A stretch of 32,000 nt of DNA from Desulfobulbus propionicus DSM 2032. Lineage in GTDB: Bacteria; Desulfobacterota; Desulfobulbia; Desulfobulbales; Desulfobulbaceae. Position numbers and translations under genes: made by a program. This document shows, one piece after another, positions 4,272 through 28,736 of this stretch; position 1 is the first letter of the stretch, and each line of letters begins with the position of its first letter. The DNA lies in assembly GCF_000186885.1 (NCBI RefSeq), contig NC_014972.1:3690001-3722000 (forward strand). The letters are read 5' to 3'. The notes under the pieces were generated by a model. That model worked only from the letters and a program-made list of their open reading frames with translations. It ran no database searches and had not been told where the DNA came from.

Positions 4272-4644
4272 TCGATTTCAACTGTAGGGCCACCGCCCCG
4301 CTGATCGATGCGCCATGGAGGGGCGGGACCGTGCATGTGGCCTGTGCATCTCCCTGGGCCCACGCTCCTTGGCCACGAAGGGACTGTGGATGACGCCCGC
4401 CCCTTGTTCCCAGCTGGGGCTGTTTGACACCTTCCTGTTTTCCGCAACATTCCCGTTCTCAAGTAGCCCTACTGCAACCGATTGTTACAGGTGTTCTTTT
4501 TTGTCGCCCGCAGGCGGGCACATCCACAGTGCCGCCCCGCCATTCGAGACACGATCATTCTCTTACCGGCATGATGAATAGCCTTCCCATGGATGCCAAT
4601 TCTTTCATCTCCCTTGACTTTATTCACACTGTAGAGTCTATGGT

Positions 4645-4805
4645 CTATTGTTCAGGTGTTCGTAGAAACGTAAAAGGGAACTCCGTGCAAATCGGAGACG
4701 GGCCCGCCGCTGTGACCGGGGACGACCGCTGCACCATGTCACTGACGACTATGTCGGGAAGACGCAGCCAATAGGAAGAACCGGGAGTCAGAAGACCTGC
4801 CTGGA
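4645..4805 (+). promoter_or_regulatory. cobalamin (B12) riboswitch
   Basis: The conserved cobalamin-riboswitch blocks appear in the right order. These are AAAAGGGAA (4672-4680), GTGCAAATC, CGGGCCCGCCGCTGTGA, the B12-box variant GTCACTG (about 4738-4744), GGGAAGAC, and a 3' AGTCAGAAGACCTGCC. The 5' CAGGT pairs with the 3' ACCTG (P1). A possible promoter has its -35 TTGACT at 4614-4619. The element lies upstream of cbiK. Confidence 0.85.
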
Positions 4806-4874
4806 CGGGAGGAGGAAACGACTGCGCGGACGGCGGCGTATCCGATTTGATCATTTCTGTGGATATAAAGGGCT

Positions 4875-5029: not shown

Positions 5030-5935
5030 ATGAACATTTTGGAGATCAAAACGCTGGTGTTGACGATAATTTGCTGCGCACTTATAGGAACCGTCTGTTT
5101 CTCAGGCGCTGTCGGTGCAGCCGGTCATGCCGCCGAGGAAAAGGGGCCGGCAATCCTCTTGGTCACCTTTGGGACCAGTGTTGAAAACGCCCAGACAGCC
5201 TTCCAAAACATCGAGCACCGCGTGAAAGAGGCCTTTCCCAAGACTGAAGTGCGCTGGGCGTATACCTCATCGATCATCCGCAACAAGCTTGCCAAGAAAG
5301 GAATCCGGATCGATTCACCGGAAATGGCCTTGTCCCGGCTAATGGACGAGGGCTATACGAAGGTCGCGGTGCAATCATTGCACATGATCCCAGGAGCCGA
5401 ATTCCATGAAATTAATGTCAATAGCCGCTTGTTCGCACAGATGGCTGGGGGGATCGATACAGTCATGGTCTCGCAACCGCTCTTGATCAGCGACGCGACC
5501 ATGGACAAGGTGTTGAACACCGTGCAAACAAATATCATACCCGAGGAACGCAAGGCGGAGGATGCCGTCATTCTTATGGGCCATGGCACGCATCACCCCA
5601 GCGACGCTATCTATGGCGCGCTGATGTACAAGGCACAAAAAAGGGATGCCAATCTTTACGTTGGCACCGTTGAAGGTGCACCTTCTTTTGCTGAGATCAA
5701 GGAGATGCTGCTCAAGAAAAAGACGCAAAAAGCCTACCTCATCCCCTTCATGACCGTGGCCGGCGATCACGCCATGAATGACATGGCCGGTGATGAGCCG
5801 GATTCATGGAAGAGTCAATTAACTAAGGCAGGCATCACTGCCGTGCCCGTGATGAAAGGGTTGGCGGAGTTCGACCCCATCGTCGATATGTGGATTGACC
5901 ATCTCAAGAATACCATGATTCATTTCCACAAATAA
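5030..5935 (+). CDS. cbiK: sirohydrochlorin cobaltochelatase CbiK family, with N-terminal signal-like segment
   Basis: 301 aa. CbiK hallmarks are ILLVTFGTS, VRWAYTSSIIRNKL, VQSLHMIPGAEFHE and MGHGTHHPSD. The N-terminus MNILEIKTLVLTIICCALIGTVCFSGAVGAAG looks like an export signal. An RBS GGGAGA lies upstream. Confidence 0.85.
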   Translation: MNILEIKTLVLTIICCALIGTVCFSGAVGAAGHAAEEKGPAILLVTFGTSVENAQTAFQNIEHRVKEAFPKTEVRWAYTSSIIRNKLAKKGIRIDSPEMALSRLMDEGYTKVAVQSLHMIPGAEFHEINVNSRLFAQMAGGIDTVMVSQPLLISDATMDKVLNTVQTNIIPEERKAEDAVILMGHGTHHPSDAIYGALMYKAQKRDANLYVGTVEGAPSFAEIKEMLLKKKTQKAYLIPFMTVAGDHAMNDMAGDEPDSWKSQLTKAGITAVPVMKGLAEFDPIVDMWIDHLKNTMIHFHK

Positions 5936-6054
5936 GACCGTAAACTAATTAGTGTACAATATATCCACGGTTCTACGATAAGCCTAGTCATTGCAATTGT
6001 TCTCAGCTCCCAGCTCGATGGTTCCGTGGGAGGGATAGACTCGTCGCCTCATCG

Positions 6055-6189
6055 ATAAAAAAACCCCTGTTTTATGAATAAAAAAACAGGGGAAAAATAA
6101 TCAACTTGATCTGCCAAGATCGCGATCTTGTGGCAGGTAAAAAGTGAACAACAAACCGTTCACGCCCATCCCAGGCACACAAACGCCTG
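6055..6189 (-). terminator. cluster of four hairpins ending the island operon (tandem intrinsic terminators)
   Basis: Read on the minus strand after the stop at 6196. The hairpins are CAGGC-N8-GCCTG (6172-6189), GTGAAC-N8-GTTCAC followed by TTTTT (6139-6163), the imperfect palindrome CTGCCA..TGGCAG (6111-6136), and CCCCTGTTTT-N8-AAAACAGGGG followed by a T-run (6055-6092). Confidence 0.65.
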
Positions 6190-6195
6190 TTACGA

Positions 6196-7128
6196 TCATT
6201 GACGTTTTTTTACATTCTTCTTCTCATCTGGCAATGGCACATTATAAACAATATAGGCAAAATCGTTCATTAGTGTGGTGATACCTTGCTCAATCGCTTT
6301 TTCAAAAAGAGCATCGTACTCATAATCAGCCCAAAATGAACGTGGGGATACTTTTACATCATTTCTATTACTCCAAACTATATTGCCATTATATGCGTCT
6401 TGAACCCACATACGAATTTGAACAACAGCTTGTGGAATAGCTCCTAATTCAATTCTATCTTTATCATCAAAATCAGAAGAATTTAAATCATCATACACCT
6501 CAGTCGTTGTTTGACCAATCCAAAATTGCTCATCAGTACCGAAGAAAAATGGGATAATGCCTTTTTTCCACGGTGCCCAAGATGGATCCAAACGATCTCT
6601 GTATTGAATAATTCTACCTCGAACAATATAATCAGCAGAAAAATGTCGTCCTATTTTAACAATTTCTTGGGGACTTAGCCCATGAACAAGAGAAGTATCT
6701 CCTTCTATATTTTTATTATTGTTTTGAGTATCTTTTATATATCTCTTCAATGTTCTTTTCATATTACTTGACCAATCATTGTCAAGTTCATACTCAATCG
6801 ATACTGTTTTGTTTCGATCATAGGAGGTGACATTTATTATATTTTGGTCAGCTAAAAACTTATAAATATCTTCTTGAACAGGAAGATGAAATCCTAACCT
6901 TACAAACTGATCAGCCACGTTTTCACTAACAAAAAGATTCCTACGATAGGCACTTTCCAGATTGTCCGCTTGCGAATAATCGGCGAAAGGCAGAATAACC
7001 ACTGTTTTGTCGGCTCCCACTATATTCTTTTTGAGTGGATCGACTTTCAACGATTCATGGACGGTCGCGCCGCAACCACCAAGGCAAAAGGCGAGGAGGC
7101 AAACGAGTAGATGGTGGCGAAATTTCAT
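6196..7128 (-). CDS. lipoprotein of unknown function (possible LpoB/CsgG/TolB-N-like fold)
   Basis: 310 aa. Lipobox LLAFCLGGC. The motif VVILPFADYS and later strands (ADYIVRGRIIQY, VVQIRMWVQDAYNGNIVWS) resemble the small alpha/beta lipoprotein fold of LpoB/CsgG-type proteins, but this is recognition only, not a search result. RBS AGGAGA. It is the last gene of the operon. Confidence 0.75.
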   Translation of the reverse strand: MKFRHHLLVCLLAFCLGGCGATVHESLKVDPLKKNIVGADKTVVILPFADYSQADNLESAYRRNLFVSENVADQFVRLGFHLPVQEDIYKFLADQNIINVTSYDRNKTVSIEYELDNDWSSNMKRTLKRYIKDTQNNNKNIEGDTSLVHGLSPQEIVKIGRHFSADYIVRGRIIQYRDRLDPSWAPWKKGIIPFFFGTDEQFWIGQTTTEVYDDLNSSDFDDKDRIELGAIPQAVVQIRMWVQDAYNGNIVWSNRNDVKVSPRSFWADYEYDALFEKAIEQGITTLMNDFAYIVYNVPLPDEKKNVKKRQ

Positions 7129-7158
7129 ACCATTTCTCCTGTTATTCTGGGGACAAAG

Positions 7159-8919
7159 TTAAATAATTCTCGGAGTGAGCAGGATAACCAACTCACGTTT
7201 CTGCAAGGTTTTCTCTTCCACGCCAAAAAGGTATTTCACCACGGGAATGCTGCCCAAGCCAGGTGCAAAAGCACCTGTCTTTCCTTCAATACTGTCGATG
7301 AGACCACCGATGATCAGCATTTCTCCGTTTTCGACCTCCACCATGGTCGACATTTCACGTACTTTGACCTGCGGCAGGCCGAGAGACATGGCGGTCTCTC
7401 CCTCACCAATGGTGGTGATCGGGACCTCACCATCACTGGTGGCATTGGCCAAATCGGTTGTAATGGGAGTCAGATGGAGAATAACTTTATTTTCGTCCAG
7501 AATAGAGGCCATCACGCCCAGGGCAATTCCCTGAACCACATTCCCCACTTCAGCAGAATAGGTTATATCTTCGGTGTCGCTATCCTTTTCTCTTGTGACC
7601 GATTTTATGTAAGCAACATCCTTACCGACACTAATAATCGCTGGTTGCCCATTGAGAACGGTCAATTTGGGATTGGCTAACACATGAGTATCTCCCTGTT
7701 CCTCTAGTGCATTGAGAAAAACATCGAATGTTAAACTTGGAATCTCAACACGACTGACAAAAGTATTCGAAAAATCATCAGGGTCAGCAGTTGTGCGTGG
7801 ATGCACTTGGCCATTGTTGCCAAAAAAAGTAGTTGCTGAAATTTGAAAATCTTTAAGAACACTACTCCAATCAAGTCCAATTTTAGAGTTATCTTGCAAA
7901 TAAACTTCTATAATTTTGGCTTCAATGTTAACTTGCTTATACAATGATTTCTTTAAATTATTGATATAATCATCGACAACCTTCAACAAGCTCGGTTTTG
8001 CTGTCACAGTTATAAGTCCTACATTCCGGTCGATAACAAAGGAAGCCTTATCCTTTGCCCCCATGCTCATTGTTTTTTCTTCTGATCCGACCGCATCTCC
8101 TTTTGCTGCTTTCTCTGGTTCACCTTGTTTTGCACTGAACTCTTCACTCTTAGCCGTATTCGGCCCCATATTTTTATCATTTTCTTTTGCTTTGGTTTCT
8201 GCTGAAGATGCCAGAAGAACAGATTGTCGATCAGCCTCAGCTGTTTTGAGGATAATTTTCAAATTCGATTCAACGCTATCCCAAACATTGAACTTGTTTT
8301 CAGGGCTCGATATTTTAACGGATCCTTCTGTGCCTGAAGCAGCATCCTTATTCGAGAGAAAATTTCCGCCTACAGTCGAAGTATAACCGCCCTTCATGGC
8401 GGGAATACCTATTTGATAAACCTTAGTCTCTTTATTACGAACAACGACATTTTTGCCATTCACTTCATGAAAATAGTCAGCTTGACGGAGAAGGTTGGCA
8501 ATCGCATCAAAAAAATTATCGTTGGCTGCGATATCGACATCGACAGGAATCGTTTGGTCAACATCGCTCGCCCAGCTAACGGTCATACCCTTTAAATTCA
8601 CCAATCGTTTCATTACCTCCCAAAGGGGTTGCGGGCCACCTGTGGAACGTATCGTCGCACCCACTTTGATCTGGTATTCTTCAGGCTCGTCACCTAACTC
8701 GTCAACAGTATTATCTGGAGATATTAGGTAACCTGGTGTCTGATATCGAACAGGAAGTTGAGCGGGCGTTGCTATGGGCTTGTTTTCGATGGTGGCGCTC
8801 GAAGATGGTGGAGCGCTCTTATCAACATTATCTTTGGCCTTCTTTTTGGCACCGCAAGAGACCAGGAATGGCAGTGCGATCACAAGACACAGGCAGGCAA
8901 CATATTTGCTCAATTTCAT
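7159..8919 (-). CDS. outer-membrane secretin, lipoprotein type (MshL-like)
   Basis: I start it at the ATG 8917-8919 (MKLSKYVACLCLVIALPFLVSCG, lipobox LVSC, RBS GAGGA upstream). It has an N0-like domain (PLWEVMKRLVNLKGMTVSWASDVD..FFDAIANLL). It has a secretin core (QVNIEAKIIEVYLQDNSKIGLDW, HVLANPKLTVLNGQPAII, GIPVVKYLFGVEEKTLQKRELVILLTPRII). Confidence 0.9.
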   Translation of the reverse strand: MKLSKYVACLCLVIALPFLVSCGAKKKAKDNVDKSAPPSSSATIENKPIATPAQLPVRYQTPGYLISPDNTVDELGDEPEEYQIKVGATIRSTGGPQPLWEVMKRLVNLKGMTVSWASDVDQTIPVDVDIAANDNFFDAIANLLRQADYFHEVNGKNVVVRNKETKVYQIGIPAMKGGYTSTVGGNFLSNKDAASGTEGSVKISSPENKFNVWDSVESNLKIILKTAEADRQSVLLASSAETKAKENDKNMGPNTAKSEEFSAKQGEPEKAAKGDAVGSEEKTMSMGAKDKASFVIDRNVGLITVTAKPSLLKVVDDYINNLKKSLYKQVNIEAKIIEVYLQDNSKIGLDWSSVLKDFQISATTFFGNNGQVHPRTTADPDDFSNTFVSRVEIPSLTFDVFLNALEEQGDTHVLANPKLTVLNGQPAIISVGKDVAYIKSVTREKDSDTEDITYSAEVGNVVQGIALGVMASILDENKVILHLTPITTDLANATSDGEVPITTIGEGETAMSLGLPQVKVREMSTMVEVENGEMLIIGGLIDSIEGKTGAFAPGLGSIPVVKYLFGVEEKTLQKRELVILLTPRII

Positions 8920-8961
8920 AAAATGATCCTCAATATGATCCAAGACACGAAATACAAACCA

Positions 8962-10836
8962 TTATAGGGTGGGATGAACAGCAACCCGTCCTTTGATGAA
9001 TTTTTCCAAGTCAGGGGGAATCTGAAATCCTGATGACAAAATAGCGCGATATTGGGCAGTGGCCTGCTTTTCTTCGCCTAATTTATCGTGAATTCGGGCA
9101 GTCGCGACCATGGAATCGAGATTTTTTCCGTAGAGGCTATCATGACGGTTAAGAGCGGCGAGAGCAGAACGCAAATCTCTGTGATGTTCACTGAAGGCCG
9201 CATAATTCAAAAGAGATTCCTTTAGCGGCTTTGGCCCGCTGGTACTTTGTTTAAAATAAGACTCTGCCTGTCGAGTATCTTGCATGTTGGCAGAGGCAAT
9301 GGCCGCGTTGAGCAGGGCGGATTCATTGCGTGGGTCAGCCTCGATGGCGCGTTTGGCAAAGTATAAAGATTTCGCATTTTGCTGAAGCTGGACGAGATAG
9401 ATGGAGGCGATCTTATTGGCAAGTTTTGAGTTTTTCGGCCATTTTTCCAGTGCCTGCTCATACAGGCCTGCTGCCGTTTCAAAATTTTCCTGCCTTTCTG
9501 CCCCACGGCCTTTGGTAATCAGTTCTTTGGCCTCGATAATTTCAGCAGACTGTTTTTCTTGCTGCTGAACGATAAGTGTATCTCGCTCCATTACCGCTGA
9601 ATCAGCCTCAAAACTTAAGTTATTTTGAGCCTGTTCGGGCCATTTAAACCCCTTTCCTTTGGGATAAATGACTAATGTGTTAAATCGCTCCTCTTTTTCT
9701 AGATCTTTCAAATTGAGAATGATATCGAGAGCGAAATCCCAAGGGACATCATCCAGCACCAAGGTGAGAGCCCCCTCCACCGATTCATCGACAACGATAT
9801 TGACCCCACTTACCTGCCGTAGAAAGTTGAAAACGTTATGTAAATCCATTTTCTGAAATTCAACGGTGATCCGTTCCTTATTATAGCCGGAGAAATTGAA
9901 TGCATCCTGCATTTGCTGTTCTTTGGCTTTTGGTGAAGGTTTTGCATCCAACGGATTAATTGAAGGGAGCTGCGTGTCGATAGTTTTTTGTTGATTAATG
10001 ATCGAAGTAACTTGATCCTTTGACCTTGCCTCATCAACAATGATTTCTAAACCATTTGATATGGCATTAATGCTATATGGAAACAATGCGTCAGAGGATG
10101 AATGGAAACTAAAACGTAAGCCCGTGTCACGACGGGCAATCTGAATTTTTGACAGTGCTGTATCAACTTTGCGATCGGTTAAGGCAGCATCATCACTTGT
10201 GGCGTTATCAATGTCTATGATAAGCTGCGGGGGAATATTTCCGGATTTATCAACGGTACTTTTATTGTATTTCGATACAGTTTCATCGAAAAGCAGCTGT
10301 ATTTTTGTTCTTTTATTTTCTTTGGTTATGGAAACATCGGAAAATTTCGCCTGCTTGGTTCCGGATGAAACATTGACAGGTTGTTGTTGATTAACTGATG
10401 TTTCGCCGTTCTTGGATACGGAATTATTTCCGGCCAACAACAAAACAATTTCATTTTCATTCTGTTTCGTATTAAACGAAATTGCCTCTGGGAGAGTGAA
10501 TTCGAATCGTGATATTGAAGACTTCGCTCCTGGAACTTCACTTGTGGCCAATTTTATATTTTCATTTTCAATCGATTGAACAAAATCTTTCGCTATTTTA
10601 GCATCTGCGATATCAACTACGATCCTTGGAGGATTAGGCAATTCGTATACCGTCGAAACTAAAGAAGCTGTTCCTTTTATTCTTATTTCTTCCTGTTGAT
10701 TTATTTTTTTCAATGTTACCGAACTAATTTGAATTTCAGGTGTTTCGGCGTTAGAACTTGTGTGAAAAATAAAGAAAAACGTGAATAATAGCAGGATGGA
10801 ATATTTCGATCGCGCAAAAGAATGAAACATGATCAT
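8962..10836 (-). CDS. PilQ-N-terminal-like protein: signal peptide + 2 AMIN domains + N0 domain + C-terminal TPR domain, no secretin pore
   Basis: 624 aa. AMIN-like units span aa about 36-135 (..NPPRIVVDIADAKI..) and about 165-268 (..PPQLIIDIDNATSD..). The N0 domain spans aa about 320-393 (ITVEFQKMDLHNVFNFLRQVSGVNIVVDESVEGALTLVLDDVPWDFALDIIL). TPR-like repeats span aa about 440-600. There is no secretin-domain motif. It overlaps pilP by ATGA. Confidence 0.85.
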   Translation of the reverse strand: MIMFHSFARSKYSILLLFTFFFIFHTSSNAETPEIQISSVTLKKINQQEEIRIKGTASLVSTVYELPNPPRIVVDIADAKIAKDFVQSIENENIKLATSEVPGAKSSISRFEFTLPEAISFNTKQNENEIVLLLAGNNSVSKNGETSVNQQQPVNVSSGTKQAKFSDVSITKENKRTKIQLLFDETVSKYNKSTVDKSGNIPPQLIIDIDNATSDDAALTDRKVDTALSKIQIARRDTGLRFSFHSSSDALFPYSINAISNGLEIIVDEARSKDQVTSIINQQKTIDTQLPSINPLDAKPSPKAKEQQMQDAFNFSGYNKERITVEFQKMDLHNVFNFLRQVSGVNIVVDESVEGALTLVLDDVPWDFALDIILNLKDLEKEERFNTLVIYPKGKGFKWPEQAQNNLSFEADSAVMERDTLIVQQQEKQSAEIIEAKELITKGRGAERQENFETAAGLYEQALEKWPKNSKLANKIASIYLVQLQQNAKSLYFAKRAIEADPRNESALLNAAIASANMQDTRQAESYFKQSTSGPKPLKESLLNYAAFSEHHRDLRSALAALNRHDSLYGKNLDSMVATARIHDKLGEEKQATAQYRAILSSGFQIPPDLEKFIKGRVAVHPTL

Positions 10837-11384
10837 TTCTCTCCTTCTTTGTTCAGGCTCATGGTAATAATCGTTTTCATTTCTTTACCCGATCTCGTCA
10901 AAGCGGTTTCCGTAATAAATACTTGATCAGGTGTAATTTTTGTAACAATGCCTCTTTTGCCAATAGGCGTCCCTACTTTCAACAAATATCCTTTATTAGC
11001 TTGATCTTCAACCATCGCTAGTTCGTCAGTTGAACTTATCAAAACACCAACCAATTTGAGCTGTCCTGGTTCAAACAACTGCATTCCTATTAATTCATCT
11101 GTGCTTTCTATGATTTCATTGGGGTCGAATCCAGCAGGGACATCAGCCTTTTCAGAAAGAAACGGTTTGAATGGATCCATCCTCCCCTCAACTTTATAGG
11201 TGTAACTGTTATCCTTTGTACTTAAAAAATTATTAGTCGGATTATCCTCTCCAAAACAGTTGGGTAAAATCCCAAACAAAAATAAAGCATATCCAATTAG
11301 GCAAACCGCAAAGCGCCTAGGATTTTCTTTTTTTTCTATCATTGTGCGGTCATCTCTTATTGTCTTGGATAAAATACTCATCAC
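10833..11384 (-). CDS. pilP: type IV pilus assembly protein PilP-like
   Basis: 183 aa. It has an N-terminal hydrophobic anchor, then GRMDPFKPF and LKLVGVLISS..LLKVGTPIGKRGIVTKITPDQVFITE, which is the PilP pattern. It follows pilO. The start could instead be the internal MIEKK. Confidence 0.7.
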   Translation of the reverse strand: MMSILSKTIRDDRTMIEKKENPRRFAVCLIGYALFLFGILPNCFGEDNPTNNFLSTKDNSYTYKVEGRMDPFKPFLSEKADVPAGFDPNEIIESTDELIGMQLFEPGQLKLVGVLISSTDELAMVEDQANKGYLLKVGTPIGKRGIVTKITPDQVFITETALTRSGKEMKTIITMSLNKEGEK

Positions 11385-11411
11385 ATACAGTACACAAAGG
11401 CTAAAATAGAC

Positions 11412-12053
11412 CTATTTCTTGCCCTTCTTTCCTTTCTGCTCTGGCGGAGGAGCAGGTACATTAGTAAATCGATACGTAACCAATCGGCAGGAGGAAGAAA
11501 GCAACATCTCGCCTTCAACTTGTTCGGCCTTCTCTGTCTTTATATTGTTAACAGTTACTATTCGCTCAAGCTTACTAACTTTATCTAAAAATAATCCCAA
11601 ATTATGATAAGGTCCCTTGATCTTTATATCGATTGGAATTTCAGCATAGAAATCTTTTTGCATTTCCGCTCCAGGTACGAACGATATAAAATCTAGGCCT
11701 GAATTTTTCCCAAGATCGGATATGTTTCGCAACAAATTGGGTATTTCTTGGCTTTTCGGGAGAAGAACAGAAGTGAGTTCAAATTCGTTTTGCGCATCTT
11801 CAAGTTCCTTTTGATGTTTTGGTAAATCGCGAGCCGCTCTTCGGACCTTGTTCAGCTCGTCAGTAGACACTTGAATTTGCTTTTTCAAATTCTCTATATT
11901 TTTTAAATTTTGCTGTAGAAATCCAAAATAAAACAATGAAACAGGTAAAATAAAAGCTAATACCAATATTAATATTTTATACCTTTTATCAAAAGGTATA
12001 AATTTTTCATCAACGAAAATGTCATATTTATTTTTCTTGGATGTCAAACCCAT
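11412..12053 (-). CDS. pilO: type IV pilus assembly protein PilO
   Basis: 213 aa. Single TM helix, coiled coil, then a PilO core (LLPKSQEIPNLLRNISDLGKNSGLDFISFVPG..FYAEIPIDIKIKGPYHNLGLFLDKVSKLERIV). Confidence 0.75.
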   Translation of the reverse strand: MGLTSKKNKYDIFVDEKFIPFDKRYKILILVLAFILPVSLFYFGFLQQNLKNIENLKKQIQVSTDELNKVRRAARDLPKHQKELEDAQNEFELTSVLLPKSQEIPNLLRNISDLGKNSGLDFISFVPGAEMQKDFYAEIPIDIKIKGPYHNLGLFLDKVSKLERIVTVNNIKTEKAEQVEGEMLLSSSCRLVTYRFTNVPAPPPEQKGKKGKK

Positions 12054-12067
12054 TTTTTGGCCTAGTA

Positions 12068-12643
12068 TTAATTTGATATTCTTTGAGCAGTATCGTTATT
12101 CTCGAATCCAACAGTGCAGGAAGTCGAGAAGGCCTTCAAATCTCTATCCGCAAATTTTTCCATTGAAGAACTTACCAATGTTACATTTTTGATATATTTA
12201 GAATTTTCTAGATCATCCATAAATTTCGCGATAGTTTGATCATCAAGTGCCATACCAGTTAAACTGAGTTGAGCCGAATCTTGAGTAATGCCTTTAAGCC
12301 ACATCCGACGAAATGGGATCAGATTTGCAATTTCATCAAGGACGTGAACAGTAAGAGAGGAAGATTGTTTTAACTGTTTTATAACTTCAATACGTGTTGC
12401 AAGAACTTTTTTCTCTTCATCGATTTTCTTGATTTCTGCTAAGATTTTATCATATTGTTTTTTTTCAGATTGCAGAGCGGCATTGGTATCGCGCATTTTC
12501 TTAACAATGTTAGACTGGTAATATCCAAATGCAATAAGCACGATCACCAAAGCACCAAAAAATATTATCGATAAATTAATCTGTTGCTTAGCTTTGTTGC
12601 GCTTAATTATTTCCCGGACCGGGAGTAAATTGATATGAATCAT
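12068..12643 (-). CDS. pilN: type IV pilus assembly protein PilN
   Basis: 191 aa. It has the diagnostic N-terminus MIHINLLPVRE, followed by one TM helix and a coiled coil. Confidence 0.8.
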   Translation of the reverse strand: MIHINLLPVREIIKRNKAKQQINLSIIFFGALVIVLIAFGYYQSNIVKKMRDTNAALQSEKKQYDKILAEIKKIDEEKKVLATRIEVIKQLKQSSSLTVHVLDEIANLIPFRRMWLKGITQDSAQLSLTGMALDDQTIAKFMDDLENSKYIKNVTLVSSSMEKFADRDLKAFSTSCTVGFENNDTAQRISN

Positions 12644-12651
12644 AATTTTTT

Positions 12652-13698
12652 TTAAAAAGATGCAGAGCGAATTGCCAATCCAGCGGCGATGGCCATTTCA
12701 GGGGCTATGGAATCAAGGTAGTTTTCATCAAATTTCTTTGGATCATAGACCATTTTTTTAAAAGGATTAAAAGCGATTACACTCAACCCTGTTTCCTTTT
12801 CTATATATTCTTTGAGTCCATTCACTTTCGACCCTCCGCCACTCAATACCAAATACTTTAAATGTTTATCTGGATTATTCATAAGATACAAGTCAATGGC
12901 TTTCTTGATCTCTAAAACCCATTGGGTGCAAGTCTGGTTGAAAATTTTTTCTATATCTTCACGAAAATTTTCTGCGGAAACGATACCAAGCTTTATCTTT
13001 TCCGCTTGGGCATAATCGATATCAAGAGTGTTCGCCAGTTGCATGGTTAATTGTTCACTACCGACAACAATATCCCTAGCCAATACTGAAACACCTTCAG
13101 ATATGATATTTATATTCATTTTTGAAGCACCGATATCGACAAGTGCAACGTTTTCCATTGGTTCCGAAATAGTTTCCCAAATATTTTCAAGAGCAAACCC
13201 ATCAACATCAACGAGCACGGTCTTCAATTTTATCTCATTGAGCATATCTAAGTAATCATTCACAACCTCTTTTTTCGCCGCAACAAGCATTATGTCGTTT
13301 CGGTCACTATGCTCTTTCTTTGATGGTAATTTTTGAAAATCGAGATAGACATCATTTAAATCAAACGGAATATACTGTTCGGCTTCAGCTTTTATATATT
13401 CCGCTAAGGAATCGTCATCCATCGCCTCTAAATTGATTTTCTTAACAATAACGGAATATCCGGAAATCGAGATACCGATTTTGGTATTTTTTATTCTCAA
13501 ATTTTTGAGAAGGGCAGAAATTGTGCGCCCAACTTCTTCCGGTTCTTGAAGAACGCCATCTTCCACCGCACCTGGTGAAATGGCGGCACTGCCAACGGCC
13601 AATAATTTATAAGTCCGCCCGGATTTCTGGAGTTGGCAAATCTTAACGGCATGGGAACCGATGTCGACTCCGGTGATCAGTTTTTCATTTTTTGCCAT
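12652..13698 (-). CDS. pilM: type IV pilus assembly ATPase-fold protein PilM
   Basis: 348 aa actin-like fold. Motifs are ITGVDIGSHAVKICQL, VALVDIGASKMNINI and LVLSGGGSKVNGLKEYIEKETG. It is the first gene of the operon. Confidence 0.9.
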   Translation of the reverse strand: MAKNEKLITGVDIGSHAVKICQLQKSGRTYKLLAVGSAAISPGAVEDGVLQEPEEVGRTISALLKNLRIKNTKIGISISGYSVIVKKINLEAMDDDSLAEYIKAEAEQYIPFDLNDVYLDFQKLPSKKEHSDRNDIMLVAAKKEVVNDYLDMLNEIKLKTVLVDVDGFALENIWETISEPMENVALVDIGASKMNINIISEGVSVLARDIVVGSEQLTMQLANTLDIDYAQAEKIKLGIVSAENFREDIEKIFNQTCTQWVLEIKKAIDLYLMNNPDKHLKYLVLSGGGSKVNGLKEYIEKETGLSVIAFNPFKKMVYDPKKFDENYLDSIAPEMAIAAGLAIRSASF

Positions 13699-13774
13699 TT
13701 TCTTTTTTCTCTCGTTTAAGTATGGCAGACAAGGTTACCCACAGATATTAAATGCTTTTTTTACTCTGTTTTGT

Positions 13775-13804
13775 ATTAAGCACATAAAATAGATGCTTTG
13801 TCAA
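13775..13804 (-). promoter_or_regulatory. candidate sigma70-type promoter for the pilM operon
   Basis: The minus strand reads TTGACA (13799-13804), 18 nt, then CTTAAT (13775-13780), about 75 nt upstream of pilM. This is a sequence match only. Confidence 0.25.
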
Positions 13805-14355
13805 GCAAGCTGGTATTTTTTTCGCCCAACCTTGATCGTGAAGCGCTATTTGCCCTACAATAGTTAACGTATTGTCATAACATAATTTTTTAAAAAAATT
13901 CACCCCATCTGCCATGCTTGTGAGCTTTACCCGCCTTCATATGTGTATCCCGAGGCAAGAAAAATCGCGCCAGACAGACGAAATGCGTATTACCTGATTA
14001 AAAGCAGCCCAAAATAAAATTGTCAAATGCTGGAGTAAAAATTACCATGCCGCGAACACTGAAACAAAAAATCGATCAATCAGGCAATTTTCTCCAGCAT
14101 CCCATAAAACCGTGCCAGCGCTTTTGCCTCAAAATTGCCCCTTCCCTTCCCACAAAAACCATGGACTGCATTTAAACAAAGTTGACGCCGTATCCTCTTT
14201 TGGTTCAACCTTTCAACGAAAGGTTAAATTGTTGCATTTTTTCACACTAAACGATACAATATGAATTGTTATTCCTTTTGCTGAATCTACACAATCAAAA
14301 TAATTTTCATAAAAAAATTTTATGAATAAAATATTAACAATAAAAATTGAATATT

Positions 14356-15213
14356 ATGTCTTCTTCAGCTATTTTGCTTATTCATTGTCCCGACAATAAA
14401 GGGATAGTTGCAACAGTCAGTGAATTTATCTTTAAAAATAACGGAAACATCACCTATCTCGATCAGCATGTTGATTCAACGCAAAAGACTTTTTTTATGC
14501 GCATTGAATGGGAGTTGGATGATTTTATCATACCCCCCAATAAAATAGGGGAATATTTCGATACACTTATAGCCAAAAAATACTCAATGAAGTGGCAATT
14601 GCATTTTTCCAATGAAGTGCCGCGGATGGCTCTTTTTGTATCAAAACTTCCACATTGCCTATACGACATTCTTTCTCGATGGAAATCGCAAGAGATAGAG
14701 GTTGATATACCTCTCGTTATAAGTAATCATTTGGAGCTCGAACCGATAGCTCGGCAGTTCGGCATTGATTTTTATCATTTTGCCATAAATACTGAAAACA
14801 AAAGGGAACAGGAACAGGCCCAACTGCAACTTTTAGCTGAACATGACATCGAGTTCATCGTCCTTGCCCGGTACATGCAAATTCTCTCCGAAGAATTCAT
14901 CAGTCATTATCGCAACAAGATAATCAACATTCACCATTCTTTTCTCCCCGCCTTTCCCGGAGCGAGACCTTATCATTCGGCCTTCGAACGTGGTGTGAAA
15001 GTCATCGGCGCGACGAGCCATTATGTGACCGCTGAGCTGGATGCCGGCCCGATCATCACCCAGGACATCATCCGCGTCAGTCACGCGGATTCCGTCGACG
15101 ATCTGATGCGGAAAGGTCGGGATCTCGAAAAAGTGATCCTCGCTCGCTCCATCTGGCACCATTTGAAGCGACAAATCCTGGTCTTTCAAAATCGCACGGT
15201 GGTTTTTACTTGA
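14356..15213 (+). CDS. purU: formyltetrahydrofolate deformylase
   Basis: An N-terminal ACT domain (AILLIHCPDNKGIVATVSEFI) is followed by a formyltransferase core (IINIHHSFLPAFPGARPYHSAFERGVKVIGATSHYVTAELDAGPII). The ORF track starts at TTG 14347; I prefer ATG 14356. No clear SD sequence. Confidence 0.9.
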   Translation: MSSSAILLIHCPDNKGIVATVSEFIFKNNGNITYLDQHVDSTQKTFFMRIEWELDDFIIPPNKIGEYFDTLIAKKYSMKWQLHFSNEVPRMALFVSKLPHCLYDILSRWKSQEIEVDIPLVISNHLELEPIARQFGIDFYHFAINTENKREQEQAQLQLLAEHDIEFIVLARYMQILSEEFISHYRNKIINIHHSFLPAFPGARPYHSAFERGVKVIGATSHYVTAELDAGPIITQDIIRVSHADSVDDLMRKGRDLEKVILARSIWHHLKRQILVFQNRTVVFT

Positions 15214-15532
15214 AATCGGAAAACAACGGCGGGTCTGGCTCAATCATCTGTGCGCCCGGGGGTGGAGCCGTCGTCTCGAATAAATGGAACTCCAAACTTC
15301 CTTCAAGAATCTGAAACGTGCCGATATAGTGTCCCGGATCGTCTGGCAAGGCCGTATTGGTCGTATAGATGCCAAGATACCGCTCTTTCACGGGCATATC
15401 CGGATCCACTAGCACCCACATCAAGGGGGCCGTGTCGCCCTTGGTCTGCACCGTCAAAATTTGTCCGCCATGCGGGATAGGGATCGACTGGAGTCGATTG
15501 GGTGTCAGTTCAAACTTCCAGATAGTTTTCAT
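15206..15532 (-). CDS. conserved hypothetical protein (small beta-rich family often seen in phage and prophage contexts)
   Basis: 108 aa, MKTIWKFELTPNRLQSIPIPHGGQILTVQTKGDTAPLMWVLVDP..YIGTFQILEGSLEFHLFE. I recognise the MKTIWK(F/Y)EL..G..iL.Vq....p.lW.lVDp pattern from uncharacterised DUF-type proteins. Its start overlaps the upstream ORF as ATGA. Confidence 0.55.
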   Translation of the reverse strand: MKTIWKFELTPNRLQSIPIPHGGQILTVQTKGDTAPLMWVLVDPDMPVKERYLGIYTTNTALPDDPGHYIGTFQILEGSLEFHLFETTAPPPGAQMIEPDPPLFSDFK

Positions 15533-20129: not shown

Positions 20130-20663
20130 TCAGGCAAGGAGCCGCGGAGCATCCTCCCAGGGGTGGCGCATGGCCTCCAGCAGCCGCTGCGGATCGGTGT
20201 AGGCGGCCAGTCGGTCCCGGTTGGCGTCAAGCACCGGCAGGGCTTTGGCGGCCAGCTGTGCCGTGGCGTCGACAAAGCCGTACTCCCGCTTGATGTAAAC
20301 GCCGGCCGCCCGGATCATGGCTTGAAGAAAGGCTTTTTCCGTTCCTTGGGCCCTATGCCAGGCTTGCTCCAGAATCTCGTGGACCTCGAAATGCAGGCCC
20401 AGATCCCAAAGGACCAGCCCCTGCCAGAGTACATCTTCCGGTCCAGAGGCGATGCCATCGAGGAAGCGCGCGTACCGCTCCAGGCGATCGTGGATGTAGG
20501 CCACCTGCTCCGGGCCAGGCCGGGCAGCGAGAAAACGATCCGCCACCCCCTGGGCCGGGGCGAGACGTTGCTCGCGCAGACAGGCGGGCAGCGCGGCCGA
20601 CAGTTGGTTGCGGATGTCCCTGCTCAGCCGGTCACGGAACGGGTCAAAGGGATGATGAATCAT
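20130..20663 (-). CDS. DUF309 domain protein
   Basis: I start it at ATG 20661-20663 (MIHHPFDPF), with GAGGAG upstream. It has a DUF309-like core (LWDLGLHFEVHEILEQAWHRAQGTEKAFLQAMIRAAGVYIKREYG). Confidence 0.65.
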   Translation of the reverse strand: MIHHPFDPFRDRLSRDIRNQLSAALPACLREQRLAPAQGVADRFLAARPGPEQVAYIHDRLERYARFLDGIASGPEDVLWQGLVLWDLGLHFEVHEILEQAWHRAQGTEKAFLQAMIRAAGVYIKREYGFVDATAQLAAKALPVLDANRDRLAAYTDPQRLLEAMRHPWEDAPRLLA

Positions 20664-20771
20664 TTGTCGCTCTCCTCGCCAATCGGGTATAGTGCCGCCA
20701 CATGCGCTGGCCGCCACCCGGACCGCGCCATGCTTCCTCCATGATTGTCCCTCTTTTCATAAGGCAGACCG

Positions 20772-20972
20772 ATGAAACTGTATAGCTGTATTACCGGACC
20801 GGACGACGAAACCTTTTGCAAACGCGTGTCCGACAAGCTCAACCGCGGCTGGCAGCTCCATGGCGGCCCCACCCTGACGTTTGACGGCAGAACGGTGATC
20901 GCTGGCCAAGCCCTGGTCAAGGAAGTCGAGGGCGAAGTCTTCACCATGGACACCACGATCAGCGCCTACTGA
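20772..20972 (+). CDS. DUF1737 domain small protein
   Basis: 66 aa, MKLYSCITGPDDETFCKRVSDKLNRGWQLHGGPTLTFDG.. This matches the DUF1737 pattern as I recall it. It ends 18 nt before sbcD. Confidence 0.6.
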   Translation: MKLYSCITGPDDETFCKRVSDKLNRGWQLHGGPTLTFDGRTVIAGQALVKEVEGEVFTMDTTISAY

Positions 20973-20990
20973 TCCGATCCGTTCTCCGAC

Positions 20991-22229
20991 ATGCGGCTGA
21001 TTCACACCTCGGATTGGCATCTTGGCCACCGCTTCCATGGGCGGCAGCGGCACGAGGAGCAGGGCCGTTTCCTGGACTGGCTGGTCGGCTCGATCGAGGA
21101 GCAAGGAATCGAGGCCCTGCTGGTGGCGGGCGACATCTTCGACACCACTGCCCCCGGCAGCCGGGCCCAGGCCCTCTATTATCGCTTCCTCCACCGGCTG
21201 GCCAGCTCCCCTTGCCGTCATGTGGTGATCACCGGCGGCAATCACGATTCGCCCGCTCTGCTCGAGGCGCCGCGGGAGCTGCTGCGCCAGCTGGACATCC
21301 ATGTGGTCGGCATGGCCGACGGCAACCCGGACAAGGAGATCCTGTTGCTGCGCGATGGTCAAGGTCTGCCCGAACTGTTGATCTGCGCCGTGCCCTTTCT
21401 TCGCGACCGGGACATCCGCCAGGCAGCGGCCGGCGAGACCCTGGAGGAAAAAGGCCGGCAATTGCGCGAGGGCATCCGCGCCCATTACCAACAGGTATGC
21501 GAACTCGCCGATCAACGGCGCAGGGAGATCGACGCCAACCTGCCTCTGGTGGTCATGGGCCACCTCTTTGTGGCCGGCGGACGCACGATGGAAGGTGATG
21601 GCGTGCGCGAACTGATGGTTGGCGGCCTGGATCGGATCGACAGCAGCAGTTTTCCCGAATGGATCGATTATCTGGCCCTCGGCCATCTCCACCATGGTCA
21701 GCAGGTGGCCGGCAGCCCCACGCGGCGTTATTGCGGAGCACCGCTGCCGATGAGCTTTGCCGAGGCCGGTCTGCGCAAGGAAATCCTCCTCCTGACCACC
21801 CGGGGACGAGATGTGTCGGTAACGCCGTTGACCGTGCCGGTGTTCCAGTCCCTGGCCTCCTTGCACGGCGATCTGGACCAGTTGCTGGCTGGCCTCGCGC
21901 AACTGAAAATCCATCCCGACCCCGCCTGGGTCGAGCTGATTTACGAAGGGGAAACGGTTGTTCCCCGCCTGCGCGACGAGTTGCTGGCGGCGGTCGAAGG
22001 ATCGGCGCTGAGCGTGCTGCGCATCCGCGACAGCCGCATCTATGATTATGTCCTGCGCCAGGCCCAGGAAGCGGAATCGCTCGATGATCTGAGCGTGGAC
22101 GAGGTGTTTGAGCGCTGCCTGGAGAGCAACCATATCGAGCAAGGACAGCGGCAGATACTGCGCGGGGCCTTTGCCGAAATCGTGGCTGCTGTGGAACACG
22201 GGACCAGCGCCCCAGAGACGGCGCCATGA
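20991..22229 (+). CDS. sbcD: exonuclease SbcCD, nuclease subunit D
   Basis: 412 aa. Calcineurin-like phosphoesterase motifs are MRLIHTSDWHLG, LLVAGDIFD, VITGGNHDS and VMGHLFVAGG. Its 3' end overlaps sbcC by 4 nt. Confidence 0.92.
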   Translation: MRLIHTSDWHLGHRFHGRQRHEEQGRFLDWLVGSIEEQGIEALLVAGDIFDTTAPGSRAQALYYRFLHRLASSPCRHVVITGGNHDSPALLEAPRELLRQLDIHVVGMADGNPDKEILLLRDGQGLPELLICAVPFLRDRDIRQAAAGETLEEKGRQLREGIRAHYQQVCELADQRRREIDANLPLVVMGHLFVAGGRTMEGDGVRELMVGGLDRIDSSSFPEWIDYLALGHLHHGQQVAGSPTRRYCGAPLPMSFAEAGLRKEILLLTTRGRDVSVTPLTVPVFQSLASLHGDLDQLLAGLAQLKIHPDPAWVELIYEGETVVPRLRDELLAAVEGSALSVLRIRDSRIYDYVLRQAQEAESLDDLSVDEVFERCLESNHIEQGQRQILRGAFAEIVAAVEHGTSAPETAP

Positions 22230-25200: not shown

Positions 25201-25888
25201 CGAACGGCGCCAGGAGGAACTGGAGGCCGCGCAGGCAGCGGGGCAGCAGGAGCTGGAAGCGCTCCACCAGCGTATCGGCGCCGACCGGGAACGACTGGCG
25301 GTCAACGCCCGTCTCAAACTCCAGTTCGAGGCCCAGCAACAGGTCCTGGCGGCACAGCACCGGGAGCTGGAGCGCTGGGAACTGCTCCACCAGTTGATCG
25401 GTTCGGCCGACGGCAAGAAATTCCGCGTCTTTGCCCAAGGGTTGACCTTTGAGGTGATGATCAGCCACGCCAACCGCCAGCTGCGCACGATGAGCGACCG
25501 CTATATCCTCCTGCGCGACCCCAAGGAACCCCTGGCCCTGCAGGTGCTCGACAACTATCAGGCCGGGGAGATCCGCTCGACCCGCAACCTCTCCGGCGGC
25601 GAGAGCTTTCTCGTCAGCCTGGCCCTGTCGCTGGGGCTGTCGGCCATGGCCAGCCACAATGTCCAGGTCGATTCCCTCTTCCTCGACGAGGGCTTCGGCA
25701 CCCTCGATGAAGAAGCCCTGGATGCCGCCCTCCAGACCCTGGCCGAGCTGCGTCAGGACGGCAAGCTGATCGGCATCATTTCCCATGTGCCCATGCTCAG
25801 GGAGCGGATCGACGCCCGCATCCAGGTACTGCCGGGGCCGGGCGGCCGCAGCCGTCTGCGCGGGCCGGGCTGCGCTCAGCTCGGCTGA
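22226..25888 (+). CDS. sbcC: exonuclease SbcCD, ATPase subunit C
   Basis: 1220 aa. N-terminal Walker A (ITGPTGAGKSTILDAICLALF). A very long Q/E/R/L coiled coil carries the zinc hook CPLCG (about nt 24020-24040). C-terminal signature LSGGESFLVSLALSL and Walker B LFLDEGFGTLD. Confidence 0.92.
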   Translation: MRIHAVRLRNLNSLAGTWVIDFTAPEYTASGIFAITGPTGAGKSTILDAICLALFARTPRLGHISKGSNEIMSRRTGDCFAEVEFETRRGRFRCHWAQHRARRSPEGELQPPRHEMVDATNGKVLESRSKEVGRLVEQVTGMDFDRFTRSILLAQGEFAAFLEADADQRAPILEQITGTAIYSRISMAVHERTSEERRKTELIAETMGSVSLLSCDEEQALTAAINEQMATVTARQRQLAELSQALHRIATIESLQVQLAETERLLLELTRRRDEDKEVFLRLERGLRAQSLLGDHNRLTETEGRLTGLRAKNESLRASLEQLRGQQRQRAEELALAGLQREEQATLQQREQETITTVCALDLRIHEKRKHLSQATAAHRQTAQERERLHQQRQELDKQLIETDARQQQLDAFFRAHGNDSLLVEQLAGYRQQLNQLGGKEQGLERMEQRLRELRTSRTATQEQMARLGDEEARATQTLTVLRQRLRLLETQRDDLLAGQPLAEWRQQVEAEELRLRQVEKAAELLHQQQRLDMEAAALDRLLRDTQVRIEREKHELRALEDKRSLQQQVVAQCERNQQLALRIRGYEQERSRLVEGLACPLCGATHHPFAEHGVEEAIIGDEPVAEARAALERMTTDIGQRREKLIGLDKDSEHGQLALNRVRQQRLELEATLTPLLPLLGQTEDRSAGATRTLAQGRERIAALRDRLRAVEDRESELQRLRAQLEQHTVQSSELQQQVQTARHALTTIDQDLFHLEGQRDEERAWIADCRRILRDHLRPLGIDDCPPGHGHSLLLHLETRLRNWKAQQEQMDRLTRLRSNLQTERDKLDLLLTTTIDRLAQQEGELERMRREQAGLLAERFELYGDRDPTMEEQRLKTLVQQAEAKEQGIRNQLIEVERELYGQGEQLRLNSEELDTLGPRVRELKTGLLARLVEAGFIDRDDVLGSLLADEELAELDKHRQTLDREQTMLTARLTEQRAALAREQALRDERRQEELEAAQAAGQQELEALHQRIGADRERLAVNARLKLQFEAQQQVLAAQHRELERWELLHQLIGSADGKKFRVFAQGLTFEVMISHANRQLRTMSDRYILLRDPKEPLALQVLDNYQAGEIRSTRNLSGGESFLVSLALSLGLSAMASHNVQVDSLFLDEGFGTLDEEALDAALQTLAELRQDGKLIGIISHVPMLRERIDARIQVLPGPGGRSRLRGPGCAQLG

Positions 25889-27479: not shown

Positions 27480-27570
27480 CAGGAGCTTCCGTGCCGCCGT
27501 CCGCAACGCAAAGGGAACGGTGGTTGGGCGCCGCTGTTCCCGGGCGACCCCACTGCGGCGAACAAGGGTG

Positions 27571-28611: not shown

Positions 28612-28659
28612 GGTGAGTCCCTCCCGAGCAAAGATTAACAGCGCGCGCTGGCAGCCAAT

Positions 28660-28736
28660 CGAACACAAACGAACACAAAGTAACACTAATCGCGCTTCGG
28701 TGTTATCGTGTTACAAAAACAATTTCTGTGTGTCAA
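28660..28736 (-). promoter_or_regulatory. candidate promoter plus AACAC/GTGTT operator array upstream of the ECF transporter operon
   Basis: The minus strand has TTGACA (28731-28736), 17 nt, then TAACAC (28708-28713). On the + strand, AACAC occurs at 28662, 28672 and 28682 (10-nt phasing), then GTGTT at 28700 and 28708. The core palindrome is GTAACAC-N13-GTGTTAT (28680-28706). Confidence 0.4.

Follow-up and report, generated by a model that had tools for sequence, protein, structure and literature searches.

A 32,000-nt stretch of the Desulfobulbus propionicus DSM 2032 genome (contig NC_014972.1, positions 3,690,001 to 3,722,000; hereafter the window) contains seven contiguous, tightly packed minus-strand open reading frames (ORFs) at window positions 6196-13698, coding for PilM, PilN, PilO, PilP, a protein with AMIN, N0 and TPR domains (the adaptor), a secretin and a lipoprotein (Lipo7). 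We conclude, with a probability that we put at about 75%, that these seven genes constitute the envelope-spanning part, that is, the inner-membrane alignment subcomplex and the outer-membrane complex, of a clade-wide variant of the multi-locus type IVa pilus (T4aP). In this variant, which is common to many sulfur-cycling bacteria, three proteins stand in for the usual single pore protein PilQ: a soluble adaptor, a pore with a lipid anchor, and an additional lipoprotein. Genes for pilins, for the motors PilB and PilT, for the platform protein PilC and for the peptidase PilD presumably lie elsewhere in the genome.

The organization of the operon was read directly from the sequence. The coordinates of the seven ORFs are those given in a preliminary description of the window, made from the letters alone, which had also noted the single ATGA overlap and the terminal cluster of hairpins (Table 1). 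The PilM/PilN, PilN/PilO and PilO/PilP junctions are gaps of 8, 14 and 27 nt, the last becoming 69 nt if PilP starts at the ATG at 11342, which is the start chosen by gene callers (169 aa) and likely the true one. The adaptor/secretin gap is 18 nt (42 nt from the ATG start of the secretin) and the secretin/Lipo7 gap is 30 nt. The only overlap in the operon is that of the pilP stop with the adaptor start, suggesting that translation of these two genes is coupled. Three hairpins follow the last gene, two of which carry T-runs (6144-6163 and 6056-6092), and the region between pilM and the divergent purU is presumed to hold the promoter of the operon.

Table 1. Features of the operon and its borders (window coordinates).
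Feature	Position	Strand	Description
pilM	12652..13698	-	Cytoplasmic actin-like protein of the T4aP alignment subcomplex; TIGR01175 254.6 bits (cutoff 133); PF11104 246.5 bits
pilN	12068..12643	-	Bitopic inner-membrane protein; PF05137 64.4 bits (above cutoff); translation begins MIHINLLP
pilO	11412..12053	-	Bitopic inner-membrane partner of PilN; PF04350 143.3 bits (above cutoff)
pilP	10833..11384	-	Periplasmic linker; PF04351 31.5 bits (cutoff 25.6)
adaptor gene	8962..10836	-	624 aa; signal peptidase I (SPase-I) signal peptide; AMIN1 ~aa 36-135; probable AMIN2 ~160-270; PilQ-type N0 ~315-395; TPR ~430-620
PilQ-type N0 of adaptor	9652..9894	-	Aligns to PilQ N0 domains (3jc8 475-552, 4ar0, 6w6m)
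secretin gene	7159..8919	-	586 aa from ATG at 8919; lipobox LVSC; N0-fold domain; N1-like domain with low-complexity insert; secretin core
N0-fold domain of secretin	8428..8670	-	ORF residues ~92-172; AlphaFold2 pLDDT 82-90; best Foldseek matches are N0 domains
Lipo7 gene	6196..7128	-	310 aa; lipobox LGGC; outer-membrane lipoprotein, unnamed family; predicted CsgG/PelC/FlgT-like fold
Terminator cluster 3' of operon	6056..6163	-	Hairpin with T-run 6144-6163; hairpin 6111-6136; strong hairpin with T-run 6056-6092
Intergenic region, pilM to divergent purU	13699..14346		AT-rich, 648 nt

PilM, PilN, PilO and PilP resemble the T4aP alignment subcomplex

Profile searches with all seven proteins bore out the domain assignments of the preliminary description, the AMIN domains being recognized by comparison of profiles with solved PilQ structures. 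A match to the T4aP PilM model and the presence of separate pilN, pilO and pilP genes in that order are the marks of the envelope part of a T4aP, and by their sequences the four proteins are assigned to the T4aP type. pilM was found in every related locus of sufficient length. The INLLP motif at the N-terminus of PilN is one that we take to be the PilM-binding motif of T4aP PilN. A lipobox-like motif occurs in 11 of 72 PilP orthologs.

The adaptor combines PilQ-type domains with a TPR domain

In Pfam, the adaptor matched the STN/N0 and TPR families, and the AMIN match was weak; AMIN became clear upon comparison with solved PilQ structures. A profile built from 16 adaptor homologs aligned with Myxococcus xanthus PilQ (3jc8, E = 3e-33, covering AMIN1 and N0) and with residues 36-363 of Pseudomonas aeruginosa PilQ (6ve2, AMIN-AMIN-N0), the latter alignment ending directly after N0. 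PilP binds the N0 domain of PilQ in T4aP, and by analogy the N0 domain of the adaptor is the probable docking site for PilP.

The C-terminal part of the adaptor scored 37 bits against the pilotin family PilW (TIGR02521), below its cutoff of 154 bits, and matched the pilotin PilF (2ho1) with E ~1e-3, without a significant stretch. For the N0-TPR protein of a distant locus (L091), the scores were 45.9 bits for PilW and 24.2 bits for Tgl (cutoff 225). The signal sequence of the adaptor is of the SPase-I type (..SSNA/ETPE) without a lipobox, and a lipobox-like motif was present in 6 of its 81 orthologs. Among the adaptor homologs the N0-TPR half is nearly invariant, the AMIN region is variable and AMIN2 is missing in several; more than 1000 relatives of the adaptor were found. 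Taken together, these results describe the adaptor as an unlipidated protein in which the N-terminal half of T4aP PilQ is joined to a TPR domain resembling that of pilotins.

The pore is a MshL-type lipoprotein secretin with a predicted N0-fold domain

The secretin ORF spans 7159-8943; the ATG at 8919 (MKLSK...) corresponds to the start used in homologs and is likely the true start. The protein scored 118 bits against the secretin family PF00263 and 251.4 bits against the MshL model TIGR02519, marginally above the cutoff of 250.2 bits, and remained below the cutoff of the GspD model TIGR02517 (122 versus 351 bits). With the PilQ model TIGR02515 (cutoff 284.35 bits), the secretin gave 99 bits over model positions 121-427 and the adaptor 68 bits over model positions 2-110 only; a single-polypeptide PilQ reaching the cutoff is therefore not encoded in the operon, its two halves being found on the adaptor and the secretin.

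The secretin aligns to solved secretins from approximately residue 225/290 to 594 only. Residues 92-172 are nevertheless strongly conserved. Comparison of the N-terminal region of the secretin with the adaptor N0 by hhalign gave no match (probability <10%, with shallow alignments), and we used structure prediction instead. The AlphaFold2 model of residues 92-172 matched, in Foldseek searches, LspD (7pmp), BfpB (9u5s), the N0 domain of PilQ (4ar0) and the N0 domain of GspD (4jtm; TM-score on the target 0.71, rmsd 2.5 over 80 columns), with modest E-values of 1e-3 to 5e-2. Given this predicted N0 fold, the secretin appears to be complete in itself, a self-lipidated protein of the MshL type, and the operon carries two N0 domains, that of the adaptor and that of the secretin, as the preliminary description had surmised. 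Its notion of a split secretin stands in part: the adaptor does hold PilQ-type AMIN-AMIN-N0 domains, but the secretin gene is a whole MshL-type gene with its own N0 fold rather than the remainder of a divided one. The lipobox cysteine and the N0-like domain are kept in all sampled secretins, including those of distant lineages.

We also considered an LPVRYQ(T/S)PGY motif preceding the N0 domain of the secretin as a candidate TPR-binding peptide. This candidate was rejected, as the motif is specific to Desulfobulbales and is not conserved in distant lineages that keep both the N0-TPR protein and the secretin.

Lipo7 is a lipoprotein of an unnamed family

Lipo7 matched no Pfam or NCBIfam family (LpoB, 16.4 bits; FlgT_M, 13.3 bits; both far below cutoffs), and every one of its 623 homologs is annotated as hypothetical. 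Its AlphaFold2 model is of moderate quality (pLDDT 65.6, pTM 0.55) with a low-confidence insert of ~45 residues. In Foldseek searches this moderate model matched FlgT (3.9e-5), CsgG (7e-5) and PelC (TM-score on the target ~0.6), and also GNA1162 and HpaA, the E-values for the PelC/CsgG/FlgT class being of modest significance (4e-5 to 1e-3).

In one distant locus (L092), a 325-aa lipoprotein encoded inside the operon between PilP and the N0-TPR protein is a homolog of Lipo7 (hhalign probability 99.9%, E = 5.7e-33). Lipo7 was therefore retained in the operon while its position changed. The L092 homolog lies at 8014-8991, and at the corresponding place (7014-7991) in a metagenome-assembled genome (MAG) labeled Desulfatiglandales (L093) lies a gene for a 325-aa protein, the size of the lipoprotein. 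A 239-aa protein encoded after the secretin in L092 had been considered as the equivalent of Lipo7 and proved unrelated (hhalign probability 0.2%). This uncharacterized gene (11964-12683), with a weak CARDB match, has a 263-aa counterpart in position in L093 (10875-11666).

Fifteen of the best 120 Lipo7 homolog clusters, 427-497 aa in length, carry a C-terminal peptidoglycan-binding OmpA domain (PF00691), some also with DUF748 (P0144, P0153, P0156, P0158-P0160, P0162, P0172, P0173, P0213, P0214, P0225, P0228, P0229 and P0231). These fusions hint that the Lipo7 family might link the outer membrane or the secretin to peptidoglycan.

The seven-gene order is conserved throughout Desulfobulbales

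A scan of one genome per GTDB species returned 233 matching stretches, of which the best 80 nearly all carry the label Desulfobulbales (Desulfobulbus, Desulfogranum, Desulfocapsa and Desulfopila). The order PilM-N-O-P-adaptor-secretin-Lipo7 was kept in all of 81 related loci from other genomes wherever the contig was long enough, a recurrence far beyond chance. In five Desulfobulbus genomes other than that of the window, among them a complete one of 4.77 Mb (L007), the operon has purU, DUF7352 and the transketolase-like gene for neighbors, as in the window. Across the order, the recurrent neighbors, named from their sequences, are uvrA, secB, glyQ, lepB, pyrB/C, pgk and queC. A guilt-by-association search across the related loci for an eighth conserved gene found none, only housekeeping neighbors. 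Since all recurrent neighbors are housekeeping genes, the module behaves like part of the core genome.

An exhaustive search with the N0-TPR half of the adaptor returned 113 representative clusters at E <= 1e-30, the distant ones being labeled Dissulfuribacter thermophilus, Desulfatiglandales and Thermodesulfobacteriota bacterium. The distant loci share pilMNOP, the N0-TPR protein and an MshL-type secretin, are often located beside lepA/lepB and have zero or one AMIN domain; with the MshL model, their secretins gave 264.7 (L091) and 238.3 bits. This shared core extends beyond Desulfobulbales to other Thermodesulfobacteriota.

A few loci depart from this pattern in detail. A MAG contig of 270 kb (L088; GCA_029267735.1, JAJUHU010000005.1) encodes an identical secretin and ends 385 nt after Lipo7, where the GC content jumps; no PilP was called, which leaves the space after PilO empty up to the adaptor, whose length is 622 aa versus 624; this is probably an assembly or frameshift difference. 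The secretin region of L038 is broken into several ORFs, and the adaptor of both L012 and L038 is found in two ORFs, which may be due to frameshifts or MAG assembly errors rather than to real pseudogenes. One Desulfolithobacter protein (P0093) could not be located on a contig.

Fiber and motor genes are not linked to the operon

Scanning all six frames of the window revealed no prepilin motif and no Walker A motif of the GspE/PilB/PilT type, and no pilin, ATPase, platform or peptidase gene was found in the 32 kb by these motif scans and Pfam searches, in line with the preliminary description. A GspE-type ATPase was encoded in none of the 81 related loci (~691 kb of flanks, within ~10 kb of the operon), and prepilin-like ORFs with a GFTLVE motif were found in two of the 81, ~6 kb downstream of Lipo7. 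These two loci, from Desulfogranum japonicum and a Desulfocapsaceae MAG, hold the ORFs at 20361-21712 (L018) and 20973-21638 (L064). Adjoining pilin and ATPase genes, by which the preliminary description would have recognized a standard subcluster, are thus not a feature of comparable loci. Its other proviso, that the proteins might fall inside a described filament clade, turned out to hold largely for PilM, PilN, PilO and PilP.

T4aP genes are typically distributed over multiple loci, while those of mannose-sensitive hemagglutinin (MSHA)-type systems (MSH) are almost exclusively found in a single locus (PMC6668835). The absence of pilins and motors beside the operon is therefore what is expected of a T4aP and argues against an MSH system, and the lack of linkage across the 81 loci agrees with the multi-locus habit of T4aP. 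In Desulfurivibrio alkaliphilus (Desulfobulbales), a published table places T4aP genes in seven separate loci: pilB (DA_837), pilC (DA_872), pilT (DA_1080), pilY1-X-V-W-fimT-pilA (DA_2309-2314), pilP-O-N-M (DA_2341-2344), pilD (DA_2361) and "pilQ" (DA_2418). The single pilMNOP operon listed there is transcribed at the 75-95th percentiles, and "pilQ" codes for a 514-aa protein ~84 kb away from pilP DA_2341 (PMC12545173 supplement). Cable bacteria, in turn, are stated by the authors describing them to encode a T4aP system (PMC10580974). The multi-locus habit of T4aP, the D. alkaliphilus loci and the statement on cable bacteria together lead us to interpret the operon as the envelope part of a multi-locus T4aP.

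The preliminary description had left two possibilities: that the module plugs into fiber and motor genes located elsewhere, which is supported by the same three lines of evidence, or that it is an "orphan", a self-contained conduit of a type that could not be assigned. A conduit working without type IV fiber or motor, for example as an export or uptake channel, would fit the lack of linked fiber or motor genes in the window and of an ATPase in the 81 loci, as well as the unusual three-part outer-membrane complement. Nevertheless, we regard it as scarcely credible: in relatives the genes in question are present, with pilB, pilC, pilT, the pilA cluster and pilD of D. alkaliphilus standing apart from pilMNOP and with a T4aP in cable bacteria; non-linkage is the norm for T4aP; and neither the cytoplasmic PilM nor the INLLP motif of PilN has been lost. 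To our knowledge, PilM, PilN, PilO and PilP couple the platform and ATPase to the secretin in every system studied, which also counts against such a conduit.

Alternatively, the module could belong to a second type IV filament system, MSH-like or other, with its own ATPase, platform and pilins encoded elsewhere, the canonical T4aP using a different secretin. Consistent with this, the cutoff of the MshL equivalog is reached by the secretin and by its L091 counterpart, a TPR element is encoded beside the secretin as is MshN (a homolog of TadD; PMC6668835) in MSH, and D. alkaliphilus has a further gene annotated pilQ at a separate locus. Yet MSH genes are almost always assembled in one locus and no ATPase lies near the operon in any of the 81 loci, PilM scores well above the T4aP PilM cutoff, PilM, PilN, PilO and PilP are encoded by separate genes, the D. 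alkaliphilus inventory has just one pilMNOP set and the AMIN-N0 part of the adaptor is nearest to T4aP PilQ. We therefore consider a second filament system unlikely. The combination perceived in the preliminary description, of separate T4aP-like pilM, pilN, pilO and pilP genes with a lipidated secretin like MshL and an associated TPR component, is borne out by the profile scores and the lipobox.

Several observations weigh against assigning the operon to a multi-locus T4aP. The secretin scores as MshL and not as PilQ. The likeness of the adaptor TPR domain to the PilW and PilF pilotin families is weak, and the adaptor is without the lipid anchor that defines pilotins. The Lipo7 model is moderate and ring formation is deduced from its fold relatives only. 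The sequence analyzed from this genome comprises 32 kb, its partner genes being presumed from relatives, and the MAG contig with the identical secretin ends just past the operon. The D. alkaliphilus list stops at pilP and gives the name pilQ to a gene at another locus (PMC12545173); its supplements do not list DA_2338 to DA_2340, downstream of pilP, and the presence of the adaptor-secretin pair in that species, or its role as the sole T4aP secretin there, could not be confirmed. The adaptor and the MshL-type secretin may have been overlooked in that inventory. Literature searches for cable bacteria or Desulfobulbaceae together with pilQ or pilMNOPQ found nothing, names of pil genes are absent from the Electrothrix gigas supplement, and no published description of this arrangement was found.

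The operon is AT-rich relative to its flanks

The GC content of the operon is ~0.40 compared to ~0.60 in its flanks (window 6000-14800), and the GC content at third codon positions (GC3) is 0.28-0.41 in the seven genes versus 0.63-0.80 in the flanking genes, purU excepted. The low-GC tract extends into the 5' half of purU, where GC3 rises by quarter from 0.36 and 0.38 to 0.49 and 0.68; four of the five syntenic relatives show no such gradient along purU. The module is lower in GC than its flanks in all 51 of the related loci compared (mean -6.3 points, extreme -21). Several high-GC Desulfobulbus genomes have the operon between unrelated flanks, and there the low-GC tract matches the extent of the seven genes. 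The loci cited for composition, besides the window, are L046, L069, L043, L048 and L034.

Such a composition, and a tract ending inside purU, could be taken to mean that the module is a recently acquired horizontal island, perhaps not integrated into host functions. We think this very unlikely given that five other Desulfobulbus genomes carry the operon at this very site, that it is found across the order with an AT shift relative to flanks in 51 of 51 loci, that the window has a single tRNA gene, ~6 kb beyond the operon, and that no ORF of the window matched an integrase or transposase family in Pfam scans, in which some small ORFs matched nothing. Module proteins being nearer to those of non-syntenic than of syntenic genomes would be a sign of transfer, and no consistent pattern of this kind was observed. 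The low GC3 possibly results from cassette-like homologous replacement or from selection favoring AT-richness in the operon. In the former case, Desulfobulbus lineages may trade the operon as an AT-rich cassette, and a GC3 up to ~40 points below that of host genes would be accounted for. Replacement of an existing operon by homologous recombination is a possibility that concerns the history of the T4aP envelope operon, not its function.

Proposed mechanism and implications

To gene content, domain identities, operon conservation and genomic context, which we observed, the following model adds protein-protein contacts, all of which we infer. In M. xanthus, PilQ is brought to the peptidoglycan of septa and poles by AMIN domains, and multimerization is promoted by the TPR pilotin Tgl, which holds the unfolded beta-lip (PMC10653833). 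In D. propionicus, PilM would bind the INLLP tail of PilN in the cytoplasm, and PilN and PilO, as their domains predict, would span the inner membrane. PilP would cross the periplasm and dock on the PilQ-type N0 of the separate soluble adaptor, not on that of the pore protein. By analogy with M. xanthus, the AMIN domains would anchor the adaptor to peptidoglycan and its pilotin-like TPR domain would hold the secretin or help to assemble it. The adaptor would thus unite peptidoglycan anchoring, PilP docking and a pilotin-like hold, and the pilP/adaptor overlap suggests that the two partners are synthesized together. The MshL-type secretin would reach the outer membrane by its own lipid anchor, bringing its own N0 ring, and Lipo7 would probably form a stabilizing or peptidoglycan-tethering collar around it.

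Tentatively, one may extend this model to the T4aP outer-membrane complex of Thermodesulfobacteriota in general, which, in place of a single PilQ with a transient pilotin, would consist of three parts: an (AMIN-)N0-TPR adaptor forming its own periplasmic ring, charged with docking PilP, anchoring to peptidoglycan and keeping a permanent pilotin-like grip on the pore, the self-lipidated MshL-type secretin as that pore and, in some orders, a Lipo7 collar, with a possible link between T4aP and MSH and with cassette exchange of the operon. This extension is a doubtful one, and, if true, the three-part arrangement could be an evolutionary link between the T4aP and MSH outer-membrane modules.

The interpretation of the operon as a T4aP envelope module implies that an entire group of environmentally important bacteria of the sulfur cycle, the order of the cable bacteria among them, departs from textbook models in how the outer-membrane end of the T4aP is built: the portion of PilQ that binds peptidoglycan and docks PilP would no longer belong to the pore but to a protein with a fused pilotin-like domain, and the pore would be of the MSHA type. 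Such a division offers a natural experiment on the roles of N0 and AMIN apart from the pore, on the need of lipidated secretins for a TPR protein and on the origin of the MSH outer-membrane module from T4aP. It also has consequences for annotation, with three genes inconsistently labeled by pipelines ("AMIN domain-containing protein" or "PilQ", "MshL" and "hypothetical") and a published inventory that stops at pilP and names another gene pilQ. Finally, Lipo7 represents a new lipoprotein family and a candidate secretin accessory.

Other genes of the window

The other ORFs of the window with a Pfam match are housekeeping genes (Band7/NfeD, L,D-transpeptidase, CbiK, PurU, DUF7352, transketolase-like, amidohydrolase, SbcCD, CbiMNQO, DAGK and MnmA); several small ORFs matched nothing. 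The tRNA gene mentioned above, the only one in the window, is a tRNA-Arg gene beyond the operon. A cobalamin riboswitch (4637-4818, 117.7 bits) precedes the CbiK cobalt chelatase gene (5030-5935), whose product has an N-terminal signal-peptide-like hydrophobic stretch and may be periplasmic. The CbiM(N)QO cobalt transporter genes (25876-28686, minus strand) lie ~20 kb from CbiK, and no Rfam riboswitch match was found upstream of them. The small DUF7352 gene (15206-15532, minus strand) overlaps the end of purU, on the opposite strand, by 8 nt and adjoins purU also in the syntenic Desulfobulbus genomes L007, L009, L011, L026 and L042.

Comparison with known systems

The closest parallel is the T4aP PilMNOPQ operon of P. 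aeruginosa, Neisseria and M. xanthus, in which separate pilM, pilN, pilO and pilP genes likewise precede the gene for the outer-membrane component, pilin and motor genes lie at other loci, and PilQ-type AMIN-AMIN-N0 domains and the INLLP motif of PilN are found. There, PilQ is a single polypeptide. Here, AMIN-N0 resides on a soluble, TPR-fused protein, a MshL-type secretin with a lipid anchor and a second N0 serves as the pore, the operon has one lipoprotein gene more and PilP is mostly not lipidated. Like MshL of Vibrio cholerae, the D. propionicus secretin has a lipid anchor; it scores at the MshL threshold, and its gene has a TPR-coding neighbor, as in the MSHA system with MshN. However, MSH is encoded in a single locus with mshE, mshG, mshM and pilins (PMC6668835), none of which accompanies the operon, either in the window or around the 81 related loci, and here the TPR domain is fused to AMIN-N0 and precedes the secretin. 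A type II secretion system is not indicated, the secretin being below the GspD cutoff and the window containing no gsp genes.

With the pilotins PilF, PilW and Tgl, the adaptor shares, through weak matches, an all-TPR domain that is encoded with a T4aP-associated secretin and presumably acts on it. Those pilotins are lipoproteins of the outer membrane with a transient action, whereas the TPR domain of the adaptor is unlipidated, fused to N0 and AMIN and far below the family cutoffs; a self-lipidated secretin may need no pilotin for targeting. Lipo7 can be compared with TsaP, the peptidoglycan-binding belt around PilQ, as a candidate secretin-associated periplasmic accessory, some homologs of which have the peptidoglycan-binding OmpA domain. 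TsaP, however, combines a LysM domain with two beta-rolls like the FlgT C-domain, and its gene does not accompany pilQ (bioRxiv 10.1101/2020.05.29.123786), while Lipo7 is a lipoprotein resembling the FlgT M domain, CsgG and PelC; the two would be parallel in function only, not homologous. With the ring-forming lipoproteins PelC, CsgG and FlgT, Lipo7 has in common its predicted fold class and a lipid anchor, and it differs from them by the lack of detectable sequence family membership and by its low-confidence insert.

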